This document shows positions 1 through 55,553 of a stretch of DNA of 55,553 nucleotides, piece by piece; position 1 is the first letter of the stretch; each line of letters starts with the position of its first letter. The DNA is from a virus. A program made the position numbers and the translations under genes. Location of the stretch: IMG/VR virus record IMGVR_UViG_3300045988_070589, one strand, 5' to 3'. Under the pieces are notes generated by a model. The model did not search any database and was not told the origin of the DNA. It worked only from the letters and a program-made list of their open reading frames with translations.

Positions 1-99
1 CTTTTTTTTACTGAGGAGGCAGAGTGTAAGGGAGTGCAAGTAGCTTGTAAAGGGCGAAAGTGCTCTAATGTTTTTGAAGTGAAAATTAAATACGGACAA
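1..99. repeat. Terminal overlap, copy 1 (identical to 55455-55553)
   Basis: Exact 99-bp identity by direct comparison. Most simply explained as a circular-assembly overlap or terminal redundancy. Confidence 0.9.
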
Positions 100-40999: not shown

Positions 41000-41157
41000 G
41001 CAAATTGTGAAGCAAGGGAAACCGAGCTTGCATTTGCATGGTGCTGTGGTGTACTCATTCTTTCCCATGATTCCCAGGTATCTTCGGATGCCTGGGATAT
41101 CCGTGGAAGCATGATACACAGAATTGTTTCTACCCTGACGTATAATTCTTCCAAAGA
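41000..41157 (+). ncRNA. Structured non-coding leader (possible attenuator/antitermination target or sRNA)
   Basis: Stems TGCAAAT (41000-06) / ATTTGCA (41031-37). A 10-bp hairpin CCCAGGTATC-TTCG-GATGCCTGGG at 41073-96. Bracketed by a promoter and a terminator, with no convincing ORF. Confidence 0.4.
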
Positions 41158-41186
41158 GATCGTATCGGATGATACGGTCTTTTTTA
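41158..41186 (+). terminator. Intrinsic terminator upstream of the ParB-like gene
   Basis: 9-bp stem GATCGTATC / GATACGGTC, loop GGAT, then TTTTTTA. Confidence 0.7.
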
Positions 41187-41218
41187 TTGCCGGAATGGGA
41201 AAGGAGTGGTGCAATAGC

Positions 41219-41875
41219 ATGGATGAAACGAACAAAAAGAGGATCGAAGTAGTGGAGATGCGAGTAGGAGATATTAAGTTCGGATTCGGGAACCCACGAA
41301 AGATCAAAAAGAAAAAGAAAGAAGAGCTGGAAAGATCCATAGAACAGTATGGAGATTTCGGTTTATTCCTGATTGATGAAAATAATAACGCCATTGGAGG
41401 CAACCAGAGAGCAACCACAATGGCTGCTCAGGATCCGGACAGGATTGTTCTATGTAAGCGATTGATCGGCTATTCTGAGGCGGATCTGAGAGCTATCAAC
41501 ATAAAGGACAATACACACGCCGGAGAGTGGGATCTGGACTTGCTGGCAGACTGGACAGCGGATCTTACTACAGATCTTGGCCTGGATCTGAAAGAGCTGG
41601 ATCCGAACGAGCGGAAGAAAAAAGAAATGGAGCTTATCAACCTGGAGAAATACAATTATGTATTGATCGTCTGCAAGAATGAGCTGGACTATAATGAGCT
41701 TACCCGGAATCTGGGAATTGATGGTGCGATCGTCCGGATGGGTTCCAAGAAGAAATTGAAAGCACGGGCTGTCTGGTATCACGATATGAAAGCCCAGATC
41801 GTAAGCGCTGCGGATGCCGGATCTCTGGATCAGGAAGAGGAAAGCCAGGAAGGAGTGGAGGATGAAGAGGGATAA
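41219..41875 (+). CDS. ParB/Srx-like nuclease-domain protein
   Basis: …VEMRVGDIKFGFGNPRKI…ELERSIEQYGDFGLFLIDENNNAIGGNQRATT… ATG 41219 lies 9 nt after AAGGAGTGG. The ORF-track start at 41111 sits inside the leader/terminator. Confidence 0.6.
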   Translation: MDETNKKRIEVVEMRVGDIKFGFGNPRKIKKKKKEELERSIEQYGDFGLFLIDENNNAIGGNQRATTMAAQDPDRIVLCKRLIGYSEADLRAINIKDNTHAGEWDLDLLADWTADLTTDLGLDLKELDPNERKKKEMELINLEKYNYVLIVCKNELDYNELTRNLGIDGAIVRMGSKKKLKARAVWYHDMKAQIVSAADAGSLDQEEESQEGVEDEEG

Positions 41876-42581
41876 AACCTTCGGGATCTACGTTCCATCC
41901 TACAAAAGATATGACTGCATAAAGACTGATAAAGTTCTGAATGATTGCACCTATGTAGTCAGAGAATCGGAAGAACAGCTATACCGGGATGCAGGAGTAA
42001 GGAAGATACTAGCTGCACCGGATCAGGAAATAGACAGCTTGCCAAAAATCAGACAGTGGATCATAGACCATACGCCCGAGGACATTATCGTACAGATTGA
42101 TGATGACATCGAGCGTTTTTCTTATGTGAATAAAGTCAACATGGAAGAGATCCCGGATCCCGACATCATAGACGCCGAGTTGGTGCGGATCGGACAGATC
42201 CTGAGCGATCTGAACCTGGGGTTTGCAAGTATCAGGATGCAGGAATCCGTTATCAAGTATAATGAGGAGTTCCGGTTTTCCTCTACGATCGGATTAGTGT
42301 GCTGGTTCAATAAGGCATCATTAAAATCCAGATATGATGAAAATGTCCGGTTTAAGGCAGATACAGATTTCCAGCTGAGCGAGCTTCTGAATAACCGGAT
42401 CATTATTGTTCCGGAATACCTGAGAGCCAAAGCACAGTATGACAAGAACAGCGGAGGGAACAACACGAATAAAAATTCAAGCACCATGAATGAAACCATA
42501 GAGTACCTGAAAAATAAGTGGGGGAAATATTACGAACATAATTTCAAAACCAATCAGTCAAAAGTGAAAGTGAGGAGATAG
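41862..42581 (+). CDS. GT-A-fold glycosyltransferase-like protein (DxD)
   Basis: …FGIYVPSYKRYD… plus …IIVQIDDDIERF… (DxD). 239 aa. ATG 41862 after GGAGTGGAGG. The family (TAGT-like or other GT-A) is not resolvable by eye. Confidence 0.5.
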   Translation: MKRDKTFGIYVPSYKRYDCIKTDKVLNDCTYVVRESEEQLYRDAGVRKILAAPDQEIDSLPKIRQWIIDHTPEDIIVQIDDDIERFSYVNKVNMEEIPDPDIIDAELVRIGQILSDLNLGFASIRMQESVIKYNEEFRFSSTIGLVCWFNKASLKSRYDENVRFKADTDFQLSELLNNRIIIVPEYLRAKAQYDKNSGGNNTNKNSSTMNETIEYLKNKWGKYYEHNFKTNQSKVKVRR

Positions 42582-42582
42582 A

Positions 42583-43446
42583 ATGAGGATCCTGATAGTT
42601 GGACACGGGGTAGTAGGGAAGAACCTGGAGAAGGAACTGGAAGTGCTGCACCCGGAAGTCATAGACAAATATAAACCGGAAGAGAACAAAATTGAAGTTC
42701 CCTACGGAGTCCGTTACGATATTGCATTTATTTGTGTGGACACACCGATCCGAAAGGAAGAGAGAGTGCTATGCGATACCTCAGAGGTAAAAAATGCGAT
42801 CATGGAGAATGAAGCGGAGATCTACGTGATTAAGAGCACAGTATCTCCAGGAACCACGGAACAACTCCGGGTAAAAACCGGAAAGAGAATCATATTCAGC
42901 CCGGAATACTACGGAGGTACGCAGCATTGCAACAACTTTCGCTTCGACTTTACAATCCTGGGAGGAGAGAGAAAGGCTTGCATTGAAGTCATCCAGGCTT
43001 TACAGCATGTATACGATGCCAGACACCAGTTTAGGATAACGGACAGTAGAACGGCAGAATTAACAAAATACATGGAGAACTCTTTTCTGGCAACAAAAGT
43101 TTCCTTTTGCCAGCAATTCTATTTTATCGCTTCTGAAATGGATGTAGACTATGAGGAATTGAGAGAGTTGTTCGTGCTGGATCCAAGAGTAAACCCTTCT
43201 CATACATTCGTTGATCGGCTGCATCCGTACTGGAGTAGCCATTGCCTGGATAAGGATGTGCCAGCTATTGCAGACACATATGAAGCTTCACTACTCCAGG
43301 AAATTATCAAGTTCAATGAGAATACAAAGAAATGTTTGGGGATCATCAGGAAAGCAGAGATCCCGGAAGGGATAAAAAACGATATGCTCATGTACCAGGC
43401 AGGAGTAAGGAGAAAAGAGATCCTGAAAGACCAGGAAACACCGTAA
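42583..43446 (+). CDS. UDP-glucose/GDP-mannose dehydrogenase-family protein (short form)
   Basis: MRILIVGHGVVGKNL (Rossmann fold), …FICVDTP…, …VIKSTVSPGTT…, …AELTKYMENSFLATKVSF…, and a catalytic-Cys-like motif SSHCLDKD. Lacks the usual C-terminal domain. Confidence 0.65.
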   Translation: MRILIVGHGVVGKNLEKELEVLHPEVIDKYKPEENKIEVPYGVRYDIAFICVDTPIRKEERVLCDTSEVKNAIMENEAEIYVIKSTVSPGTTEQLRVKTGKRIIFSPEYYGGTQHCNNFRFDFTILGGERKACIEVIQALQHVYDARHQFRITDSRTAELTKYMENSFLATKVSFCQQFYFIASEMDVDYEELRELFVLDPRVNPSHTFVDRLHPYWSSHCLDKDVPAIADTYEASLLQEIIKFNENTKKCLGIIRKAEIPEGIKNDMLMYQAGVRRKEILKDQETP

Positions 43447-47563: not shown

Positions 47564-47731
47564 ATGGCAATGATAGGTAGTCCGGACAATGTTCCGGATT
47601 TTCTTATGTCCGTCCACCAGTGCCGGGACTGTGAAACAGATCCACCAGAGTGTACGGATGAAATAAAAAGGACATGCCCTTTTTACCATATCCGGAATGA
47701 TCCGGAAGATCAGGAAAATGGCACATGCTGA
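47564..47731 (+). CDS. Small Cys-rich protein (55 aa; below the ORF-track cutoff)
   Basis: ATG 47564 after AGGAGGAG. Reads …HQCRDCETDPPECTDEIKRTCPFYH… Its stop overlaps the next start. Confidence 0.45.
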   Translation: MAMIGSPDNVPDFLMSVHQCRDCETDPPECTDEIKRTCPFYHIRNDPEDQENGTC

Positions 47732-48954
47732 CACCAGAGTATCTGAACTCATGCACTGATTATCTGCTTGGCATGTATGACGCACTGAATCAGTCCATTG
47801 CGGAAGATATTGCACGTAGGATTGTAAAGACCGGAAAAATGACGGATAGTGCGAAATGGCAGGTAAAACAGCTCAGAGAGAATGGAGAACTGATGCAGGA
47901 CATCGTGAAGGACGTTGCTAGGATATCCGGAAAGTCACAGAATGAGGTAAAAAGACTTTTCCAGGATTCTGCACGAACCGGGGTGCGATATGATGCACAA
48001 CCACTTCTGAAAGCTGGTTATGATATCAACCTGAAATTATCTCCGGCAATGAACCAGGTGTTAGAGGCTGCCATTGCAAAGACGAATGGCAATATACGCA
48101 ACCTGACAATGACAACCGGATCCACCACAGGAGGCTTATATCTGGAGGCAACCAACCTTGCCTATATGAAAGCAACTTCTGGCGGATTTTCGTACTATGA
48201 GGCGATCAGAGAGGCAATCAAACAAGCTGCTAAAGATGGTGGGTACGTGTTGTATGGGAAGGGAAACAGATCACAGCTTGACGTAGCGATCCGGAGATCT
48301 GTATTAACCGGACTGAATCAGACAGCCGGGAAGCTGACAGAATTATATGCTGAGGACATGGACGTGGAATATTACGAAACCACAGCTCATGCCGGGGCGA
48401 GACCTTCTCATGCTGAATGGCAAGGGAGGGTTTTTAAGATTCACGGATCATCTCCGGATTATCCCAATTTCGTAGATTCTACCGGGTACGGATCAGGATC
48501 CGGACTATGCGGCTGGAACTGCCGACACAGCTTCTATCCATACTGGCCGGGAATATCCAGTCCAGCATACTCGAAAGAGAGGCTGGCAGAATATGACCGG
48601 GCGAAATACTCATACAACGGCGATATACTGACAGATTATGAGTGTTCACAGATCCAGAGAGCGTATGAAAGAGAGATCCGAGAGATCAAACGTATTCTTT
48701 CCAGCTACGATGCGGCAATGCAGGAATCACGAAGCGAAGCACAGATCCAGTGCATCCAGGAAGATTTTACATCGGAGAGCGTGAAGCTGAAAAAGAAAGA
48801 GAGGGAGTTGAAAAACTTCTGCAATGACACCAACCGGAGCTATGACAGTGCCAGAACCCAAGTGGTAGCATACAAAGATAGTGAAGGAAGGATTGTCAAT
48901 TTTGGAAGATCCACGGCTCAAAAGGCTGTATGGGCGAATAAAAAATCAAATTAG
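47725..48954 (+). CDS. Minor head protein, MuF/SPP1 gp7-like
   Basis: …YYETTAHAGARPSHAEWQGRVF…CGWNCRHSF… Positioned after the portal gene. Confidence 0.75.
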   Translation: MLTPEYLNSCTDYLLGMYDALNQSIAEDIARRIVKTGKMTDSAKWQVKQLRENGELMQDIVKDVARISGKSQNEVKRLFQDSARTGVRYDAQPLLKAGYDINLKLSPAMNQVLEAAIAKTNGNIRNLTMTTGSTTGGLYLEATNLAYMKATSGGFSYYEAIREAIKQAAKDGGYVLYGKGNRSQLDVAIRRSVLTGLNQTAGKLTELYAEDMDVEYYETTAHAGARPSHAEWQGRVFKIHGSSPDYPNFVDSTGYGSGSGLCGWNCRHSFYPYWPGISSPAYSKERLAEYDRAKYSYNGDILTDYECSQIQRAYEREIREIKRILSSYDAAMQESRSEAQIQCIQEDFTSESVKLKKKERELKNFCNDTNRSYDSARTQVVAYKDSEGRIVNFGRSTAQKAVWANKKSN

Positions 48955-48968
48955 GAGGTACATGTAAC

Positions 48969-49661
48969 ATGAAGAAAGAAGATCTGTTTAAGCAGTGGGA
49001 GGAGCTGAAAGCAAAGGAAGAGGATATTGATTGCATTATCCTTTATATTCACATGCCGACTGGCGAAGAGGAAGTGATCGTCAATCCGAATGTGGTTGAT
49101 AAGATGCAGTATATAGGCAAGACGTACAATGATGATCTGATTCACGCAAACTGCAAAGATATTTATATCACAGACGTTATTTTCTCCGTGAATGATGATT
49201 CCTGCATGGACTTTGAAGAGGCTCTTGCGTTGATGAAAGAGGGGCACAAGGTAAAACTTCCTTCCTGGGGAGGCTACTGGAGCTGGGATCAGGAAAAAGA
49301 GACGGTTATTATGCACACGAAAGATGGCGAAGATCTGGATATCAGAGAAACACAGAGAGTTGGCTACACTCTGGAGAATATTCTTTCTGATGAATGGCAG
49401 ATTGCTAACGAGGAGAATTGTCCTCAGCTTGGTGGAGAGGCTACATTCTCTTTTGGTTTTGCGATCAAATATCTGAGGAGAGGATTTAAAGTTGCCCGTA
49501 AAGGGTGGAACAGGAAGAAACAGTACATCCAGCTTGCCACCGGTATTTCCTACAAGACGGCGGATGGAGATATCGTGAATTGCGAACATGATGCCATCGG
49601 AAACATGGCTATTGCGTTCTGTGGAACATCTGGTGTTCAGATGGGATGGTTAGCATCTTAG
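48969..49661 (+). CDS. Tandem DUF2829 (Tad2-like) domain protein, ended by an in-frame TAG inside the second domain
   Basis: Domain 1: …FEEALALMKEGHKVKLPSWGGYW…ILSDEWQI. Domain 2: …FGFAIKYLRRGFKVARKGWNRKKQYIQL…GWLAS, then TAG. The next 22 codons (to 49727) read ADMLADDWMFVEEENNDSSKY. Confidence 0.6.
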   Translation: MKKEDLFKQWEELKAKEEDIDCIILYIHMPTGEEEVIVNPNVVDKMQYIGKTYNDDLIHANCKDIYITDVIFSVNDDSCMDFEEALALMKEGHKVKLPSWGGYWSWDQEKETVIMHTKDGEDLDIRETQRVGYTLENILSDEWQIANEENCPQLGGEATFSFGFAIKYLRRGFKVARKGWNRKKQYIQLATGISYKTADGDIVNCEHDAIGNMAIAFCGTSGVQMGWLAS

Positions 49662-50025
49662 GCAGACATGCTGGCTGATGACTGGATGTTTGTTGAGGAG
49701 GAAAACAACGACAGTTCCAAATATTAGAAAGGCGGTGATCCTGATATCTCCCACCTATGGGTTAAATAGGAGGCGGATATAGGCGATCAGCGGTAAGAAT
49801 GGAGAAATACTCACACAATGGAATAAAAGGTGTGCATGAGGCTATACGAAGCTCTCAGGTATGCTTTACGCAGAGGGATTGTCAATAAAAGGCAATCCTT
49901 TTGCTTTGCCCTGGAGGTATGGCATATAAACTACTCGGTTCCCCATCGTGCCGGGATATAAATGCACGATAGCAGAGCCGGAGTGAACCGGAATCTAAAT
50001 GAAATCAGCGAAGAAAGGAAGGTAA

Positions 50026-55391: not shown

Positions 55392-55553
55392 TTGAAAATA
55401 GACAGAAAGAAGTATACCCAGGTGGTTTGTCCTGCATGTGGGTATCGAATGCCTCTTTTTTTTACTGAGGAGGCAGAGTGTAAGGGAGTGCAAGTAGCTT
55501 GTAAAGGGCGAAAGTGCTCTAATGTTTTTGAAGTGAAAATTAAATACGGACAA
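55392..55553 (+). CDS. Small zinc-ribbon protein, 5' part (continues across the circular junction to the stop at window position 111)
   Basis: TTG 55392 after GGAGGTGG. Reads MKIDRKKYTQVVCPACGYRMPLFFTEEAECKGVQVACKGRKCSN…. Confidence 0.4.
   Translation, partial: MKIDRKKYTQVVCPACGYRMPLFFTEEAECKGVQVACKGRKCSNVFEVKIKYGQ
55455..55553. repeat. Terminal overlap, copy 2 (identical to 1-99)
   Basis: Exact identity by direct comparison. Confidence 0.9.

Follow-up and report, generated by a model that had tools for sequence, protein, structure and literature searches.

The window analysed here, the whole 55,553-nucleotide IMG/VR virus record IMGVR_UViG_3300045988_070589, contains between its MuF-like and scaffold genes an accessory gene for a predicted three-part Tad2-like (PF11195, DUF2829) sponge, and the reading frame of this gene is interrupted by an in-frame TAG. 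Does the phage read through this codon, is it an error in the record, or has the gene been broken? By far the likeliest answer from the sequence is that a natural C>T stop mutation of the ordinary kind has knocked out, in the lineage of the window, an anti-defence gene that the phage can do without. The transition turned the CAG codon of the invariant Gln231 into TAG, ending translation 22 residues early; the product is then without the ligand-binding aspartate D233, helix alpha3 and the terminal beta-strand, and the pocket of its second Tad2-like module is most probably destroyed. Strong selection may keep such a sponge gene in phages whose host signals through the immune system that it counters, while elsewhere its loss may cost nothing or even be of benefit.

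The interrupted gene and its ancestral codon

Read from the sequence, the frame opened by ATG 48969 (+ strand) runs for 230 codons to TAG 49659-61, so that the encoded C-terminus is ...GTSGVQMGWLAS-TAG (...GWLAS-TAG). The upstream MuF-like open reading frame (ORF), 47725-48954, also has TAG as its terminator. Beyond TAG 49659-61 the same frame continues for 21 sense codons, ADMLADDWMFVEEENNDSSKY, and then meets a second TAG at 49725-27; an earlier note that drew attention to the interruption had both the coordinates and the sequence exactly right. The features of the gene are as follows.

48953..48958, + strand: Shine-Dalgarno sequence AGGAGG, 10 nt before ATG 48969, overlapping the TAG of the MuF-like gene (48952-48954)
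48969..49199, + strand: N-terminal domain, residues 1-77, alpha-beta-beta-alpha-beta; phrog_3915, E = 4e-12
49203..49439, + strand: module 1, residues 79-157, of the 'PSWGGYW ... ENILSDEW' type; PF11195 23.2 bits, profile positions 1-72 of 73
49440..49658, + strand: module 2 as encoded, residues 158-230, cut after ...GWLAS; matches PF11195 over profile positions 2-61 of 73 and aligns with SPO1 Tad2 and HgmTad2/AcrIIA7
49512..49514, + strand: codon 182, AGG (Arg); GGG (Gly) in at least 90% of relatives; equivalent to HgmTad2 G23
49659..49661, + strand: premature amber stop, codon 231; ancestral CAG (Gln), C>T transition at 49659
49662..49727, + strand: orphaned 3' end of the gene, the 21 codons ADMLADDWMFVEEENNDSSKY and the original TAG, identical to the intact alleles L004-L006; encodes D233, helix alpha3 (231-235) and the last beta-strand (239-241)

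The match to PF11195 (Pfam, Tad2-like) is 55.8 bits as encoded, over profile positions 2-61 of 73 (cut-off 25), and rises to 82.7 bits (+26.9 bits) over positions 2-73 of 73 when the TAG is read as Gln. Because read-through completes the profile, the 21 codons behind the TAG must encode the true end of the domain and do not follow it by chance. Profile positions 62-73 lie after the TAG, so the encoded product is without the complete C-terminal W-x-x-S-Q-x-D-x-L-A-x-D-W segment. This bears out the proposal that the DUF2829 C-terminal signature lies downstream of the stop: the segment is conserved in relatives, the domain does not end naturally at WLAS, the 22 codons belong to the family and the orthologues do not all stop there. 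Re-initiation at M234, which would give a complementing 19-residue peptide, is judged unlikely, as that product has no D233 and the AGG upstream is weak.

Orthologues retrieved by protein search are 252 residues long and 98-99% identical; one cluster at 90% identity (cluster 1) holds 664 distinct sequences. Residue 231 is Gln in a 24-sequence and in a 118-sequence alignment, the latter being invariant at W227, Q231, D233, D238 and W239 and showing the whole C-terminal segment in each of its 118 sequences, and the TAG thus does occupy a conserved Gln of the family, as had been supposed. At the DNA level codon 231 is CAG in every intact allele examined. A pattern scan of IMG/VR and the GTDB species-representative genomes that accepted C or T at base 49659 found CAG in 9/9 matches, all with the full C-terminal segment. 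The nearest intact allele, L016, comes from an independent human-gut contig whose flanks differ from the window by ~0.7%. Within the gene only two differences separate it from the window allele, 49512 G>A (G182R) and 49659 C>T (Q231*), with no synonymous change. Two diverged relatives, L014 and L015, likewise have Arg at position 182.

Three further assemblies carry exactly this 230-residue allele, G182R included: a Human Microbiome Project (HMP) scaffold, a European Nucleotide Archive (ENA) assembly (~33x coverage) and a Joint Genome Institute (JGI) contig (L001-L003). They belong to the same clone as the window and depart from it at a single position in 12.5 kb, a single-nucleotide polymorphism (SNP) at 55487. 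This makes a one-off error unlikely; the allele is inherited, and in no fewer than two genotypes. Judged by these comparisons, the window allele is a recent, heritable CAG>TAG nonsense mutation of the ordinary kind in one clonal lineage; of the explanations first offered for the TAG, this one is upheld.

L016 and the window also have in common a distinctive run of synonymous differences. Across codons 211-224 (49599-49640) there are ten synonymous third-position differences from most close relatives, common only to L016, and this cluster is a short recombination or gene-conversion patch directly upstream of the TAG. In some alleles (P0122, P0017/L019) module 2 is exchanged for other Tad2 variants. 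P0122, a 233-residue allele of cluster 1 from metagenome-assembled genomes (MAGs) of Lachnospiraceae, has the NCBI name 'MW1434 family type I TA system toxin', apparently unrelated to its Tad2-like identity.

Consequences of the truncation and recurrent loss of the gene

By profile and model comparison, the intact 252-residue protein is an N-terminal domain followed by a divergent Tad2-like module 1 and a canonical Tad2-like module 2. Module 2 alone and in full (residues 158-252) matches PF11195 with 67.8 bits. The original reading of two DUF2829 modules holds, with the caveat that module 1 alone, at 23.2 bits, lies just below the gathering score of 25 though it covers nearly the whole profile. 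The two modules align end to end (20% identity, BLASTP pairwise E = 8e-4) and have parallel secondary structure in the AlphaFold2 (AF2) model; module 1 is without equivalents of the canonical N26, W73 and D79. The model, of a 99%-identical intact orthologue [predicted local distance difference test (pLDDT) 83], contains the Tad2 fold, and the top 24 Foldseek matches in the PDB are all Tad2 structures with probability 1.0, with no other significant ones. An NCBIfam scan of the window protein matched no model.

The N-terminal domain is modelled with a pLDDT of 93.5. It has no Pfam match, and Foldseek against the PDB gives nothing significant; in BFVD it matches ~90-residue stand-alone proteins of the Bacillus phages CP-51 and Mater (TM 0.7-0.87). 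Its family, phrog_3915, consists of uncharacterised stand-alone phage proteins of ~90 residues, including those of the Bacillus phages CP-51, Mater and Moonbeam. Known sponges are often fused to one another, which makes the N-terminal domain a candidate for a new anti-defence function or a new partner of sponges. It and the 'WGGYW' module might be sponge or partner domains that form a pseudo-heterotetramer with the canonical module.

The best solved relatives by sequence are HgmTad2/AcrIIA7 (E = 2.5e-11) and then SPO1 Tad2 (E = 1.7e-7), on which module 2 maps as follows.

W180-N181-R182: SPO1 Tad2 W25-N26-G27, HgmTad2 W21-N22-G23
W227: SPO1 Tad2 W73, HgmTad2 W87
S230: SPO1 Tad2 S76, HgmTad2 S90
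Q231: SPO1 Tad2 Q77, HgmTad2 Q91
A232: SPO1 Tad2 T78, HgmTad2 T92
D233: SPO1 Tad2 D79, HgmTad2 D93

In SPO1 Tad2 the pocket for glyco-cyclic ADP-ribose (gcADPR) is formed by W25, N26, W73, S76, T78 and D79 and includes helix alpha3 (bioRxiv 10.1101/2023.05.01.538930). HgmTad2 holds the diphosphate of the ligand with N22 and G23, and its triple mutant S90A/T92A/D93A has markedly reduced gcADPR binding and ThsA inhibition (PMC10680739). Intact orthologues have all the mapped pocket residues except the T78 equivalent, which is Ala. The window product retains W180, N181, W227 and S230, has Arg182 at the position of the Gly, and has lost A232 and D233, which lie beyond the stop. In the AF2 model of the intact orthologue the deleted tail forms a helix (231-235) and the last strand (239-241). 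The canonical pocket (gcADPR type) of module 2 is thus probably dead and the module destabilised. A 230-residue product without D233, helix alpha3 and a core strand would make the allele loss-of-function or strongly hypomorphic.

The window allele does not stand alone. Following shortened, near-identical database proteins to their contigs yields, among alleles at least 97% identical, seven independent nonsense mutations on different backgrounds, together with a frameshift and a deletion.

G92*, GGA>TGA: L008
W100*, TGG>TGA: L026
W106*, TGG>TAG: L023
E111*, GAG>TAG: L024, L025
G179*, GGA>TGA: L007
W180*, TGG>TAG: L020, L021
Q231*, CAG>TAG: the window, L001-L003

The frameshift lies near codon 101 (P0171). 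The deletion, of ~566 bp, runs between GAGGCTA microhomologies at 49272 and 49838, from codon ~103 into the spacer downstream of the gene (49838-49844; P0168). Further variants are an in-frame deletion in the N-terminal domain (P0150) and a fusion allele (P0154). Most alleles are intact, the 664 distinct sequences of cluster 1 being mostly full-length, and at the same loci no interruption is seen in the portal, MuF, scaffold or capsid gene. Among 11 intact alleles the ratio of non-synonymous to synonymous substitution rates (dN/dS) is ~0.04. Together with the recurrent lesions, this indicates a gene that clearly works and is constrained where intact, yet dispensable for propagation and repeatedly lost. 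Targeted mutagenesis by a diversity-generating retroelement (DGR) was rejected, since none of the seven nonsense changes is at an adenine: three are G>T, three G>A and one C>T.

The same molecular event may have had another driver: the lesions would have been positively selected, an active sponge being a burden in hosts whose immunity guards their nucleotide pool. We regard such an adaptive knock-out as unlikely, though it is the alternative that survives best. Strong purifying selection beside at least nine independent disruptions on different backgrounds would fit it, and so would the two changes that separate the window from its nearest intact allele, both of which affect the pocket while none is synonymous; two against zero is, however, not significant. 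A precedent comes from Panoptes-like systems, which fire when a sponge sequesters decoy nucleotides: T4 escapers from Panoptes carry acb2 frameshifts, stops and deletions, and some Tad1 proteins, and SptTad2 slightly, trigger Panoptes (PMC12657218). That the nine or more knock-outs at this locus record selection by a Panoptes-like guard immunity sensing nucleotide sequestration is a specific form of the idea that we consider doubtful. Ascertainment bias speaks against adaptive loss, as truncated products were deliberately looked for while the members of cluster 1 are mostly full-length, and plain relaxation of selection on an accessory gene accounts for the pattern equally well. An excess of nonsense alleles over the neutral expectation was dropped as an argument because of the ascertainment bias.

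Several points weigh against reading the window allele as an ordinary knock-out of a dispensable gene, or limit how far that reading goes. The lesion catalogue was built by a targeted search for shortened proteins and speaks for recurrence only, not for more lesions than neutrality predicts. All contigs with the TAG belong to one clone and possibly derive from one person or one data set, which bears on the spread of the allele in the population. The 21 downstream codons, still identical to those of L004-L006, fit a recent event, and no decay can be demonstrated from them. In the truncated protein the N-terminal domain, module 1 and most of module 2 remain, so that residual or altered activity is possible, as is some natural read-through of UAG at a low level in the host.

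Knock-out of a dispensable gene remains the preferred reading, and on it the lesions amount to an allelic series made by nature, in which the protein ends after residue 91, 99, 105, 110, 178, 179 or 230. Such alleles would allow tests of which parts of a three-domain Tad2 fusion are needed and whether a sponge is costly in some hosts. If the guard-immunity reading were true, it would be population-level evidence from the human gut for counter-counter-defence.

Recoding, suppression and error

Some gut phages read TAG as Gln, and a TAG that interrupts a gut-phage frame where Gln is expected is easily called as recoding. With programmed read-through, amber suppression or a recoding of TAG as Gln, the codon would here be decoded, as Gln or another residue, often enough to yield the full-length protein. 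The TAG replaces precisely a Gln codon, and behind it the frame stays open to the original stop, both as recoding would have it, but the intact downstream sequence is what inheritance from a CAG ancestor gives. TAG ends ~22 of 84 ORFs in the window (a crude set of non-overlapping ORFs), including the terminase, portal and MuF genes, the adjoining essential late genes among them. The TAG terminators of late genes are often embedded in the Shine-Dalgarno sequence of the next gene. ARAGORN finds no tRNA genes in the 55.5-kb window, and hence no phage-encoded suppressor tRNA(CUA); no Rfam family matches in the window either. Only this gene is seen interrupted in the window. Where frames do continue after a TAG, the neighbours are separate genes: RusA, which follows a helix-turn-helix (HTH) gene in the same frame, starts at position 2 of its own profile after a TAG.

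Genome-wide recoding of TAG was rejected on the stop census, the absence of tRNA genes and the independence of the same-frame ORFs after TAG. Programmed read-through is recognised by an extension that is conserved together with its stop, and at this locus the extension is conserved while the stop is confined to the window lineage: no TAG at codon 231 was found outside that lineage among the orthologue alleles examined, and none of the best 150 of 3,037 representatives in an exhaustive protein search ends near position 230. The other disrupted alleles use TGA, TAG, a frameshift and a deletion, which one suppressor cannot rescue together. Read-through or amber suppression, which the earlier note had listed beside mutation, thus finds no support, and we consider any such rescue of the gene highly improbable. 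A sequencing or assembly artefact, with a true C at 49659 and an intact gene, is just as improbable: the allele differs by a single base from otherwise identical relatives and C>T is common both as error and as damage, but the identical 230-residue allele with G182R recurs in three assemblies from different pipelines, which at 55487 differ from the window.

The gene should accordingly be annotated as disrupted and not as an instance of recoding, and the case shows which controls rule the latter out. Between the portal and MuF genes a Cys-rich ORF of 55 residues (47564-47731, + strand) lies in frame with the portal gene right after its TAG. Relatives carry a small ORF there as a separate, overlapping gene in another frame, so the 55-residue ORF is not a read-through extension.

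The phage and comparison with known systems

The genome in the window is circular and belongs to a temperate siphovirus of the human gut whose host is one of the Lachnospiraceae. An exact 99-bp terminal direct repeat (window 1-99 and 55455-55553) indicates a circularly closed genome of ~55,454 bp (~55.45 kb). Tail genes lie at the start of the window and head genes at its end, and related contigs of ~111 kb are probably two-copy concatemers. The window encodes a large serine recombinase, RecT, RusA and an endolysin. The same phage species is found in a Coprococcus intestinihominis isolate and relatives in Lachnospiraceae genomes.

Just upstream of the terminase gene, on the + strand, a TET-associated glycosyltransferase gene (PF20691, 41814-42581) is followed by a UDP-glucose/GDP-mannose-dehydrogenase-like gene (42583-43446); this pair (41814-43446) may be a DNA hypermodification (anti-restriction) cassette. 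An overlapping ORF, 41111-41875 (254 residues), has no Pfam match. Downstream of the interrupted gene lies one further element.

49728..50025, + strand: non-coding spacer of 298 nt before the scaffold gene, with a hairpin and U-tract at ~49874-49910

The spacer folds far better than shuffled sequences (z = -4.5), and its last 95 nt are near-invariant among relatives, with 2% variable columns versus 23% at the third codon positions of the neighbouring gene. A scan for promoters and terminators around the gene with a consensus scanner gave no terminator. The spacer may comprise a terminator and, behind it, a late promoter or a 5' leader that serves the scaffold and capsid genes.

The tandem form in a head-morphogenesis operon, which had been called unusual, proves to be no exception. 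The two-module unit is a PHROG family of its own, phrog_1048, with thousands of relatives, including genes in cultured Dorea and Ruminococcus gnavus phages, and the slot recurs, the relatives' gene sitting either between MuF and scaffold genes or beside the lysis cassette. Both the family PF11195 and its tandem form are known, and the present gene is another, disrupted member. A literature search for natural Tad2 pseudogenes found only irrelevant papers. The recurrent knock-outs and the uncharacterised three-domain architecture give the locus a modest follow-up value.

Like the stop-codon-recoded gut phages, the window comes from a gut phage and has, in a gene of the late operon, a TAG in frame where Gln belongs. 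It differs from them in that TAG is a frequent true terminator, no suppressor tRNA is present, a single gene is hit and the orthologues have CAG. The acb2 escapers from Panoptes (PMC12657218) resemble the natural alleles in that a sponge gene is hit by stops, frameshifts and deletions; they arose under laboratory selection in T4 and E. coli, whereas here the alleles are natural and relaxed selection accounts for them equally well.

In the Bacillus phage phi4J1 the 'WGGYW'-type module exists as a separate gene. Its DUF2829 pair (XO28_0062/0063; L045, NC_029008.1 39288-39793), like those of SpaA1, BceA1 and Waukesha92, has the same order as the window, 'WGGYW' and then the canonical 'GWNGK...GWLASQTDMLANDW'. 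There the modules are two translationally coupled genes of 80 and 87 codons, whereas here they are fused and joined to an extra N-terminal domain; both arrangements are known from sequence. The phi4J1 pair was considered as another in-frame interruption and rejected, being two complete, coupled genes. Its gene order suggests that the two module types work together. The pair mirrors modules 1 and 2, a hint at undescribed hetero-oligomeric Tad2 assemblies.

SPO1 Tad2 (Thoeris anti-defence 2, Gp34.65; PDB 8SME/8SMF/8SMG), a gcADPR sponge, shares PF11195 with module 2, aligns with it over the whole of its 89 residues and matches its fold, with a Foldseek probability of 1.0 and TMt up to 0.77; the intact orthologues keep the W-N and W-x-x-S-Q-x-D-x-L-A-x-D-W motifs. 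SPO1 Tad2 is the stand-alone 89-residue subunit of a homotetramer, whereas module 2 is the last of three parts in a protein of 252 residues known from sequence. T78 is replaced by Ala, and the window allele is untranslated from the Q77 equivalent onward (T78, D79, alpha3 and the last strand).

HgmTad2/AcrIIA7 (PDB 8KBI-8KBM, 9KZR), from a human-gut metagenome, binds gcADPR and cyclic dinucleotides, the latter at a site of its own with R31, S47, F70 and N85; Li et al. (PMC10680739) did not reproduce its anti-CRISPR activity. It is a single-domain protein of Bacteroides phages, and the window allele differs from it by the Arg at the G23 equivalent. As in module 2, an insertion separates its central strands. 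The 'GWLASQ-DMLA-DW' C-terminus is identical, and the S90A/T92A/D93A mutant shows that gcADPR binding depends on this segment.

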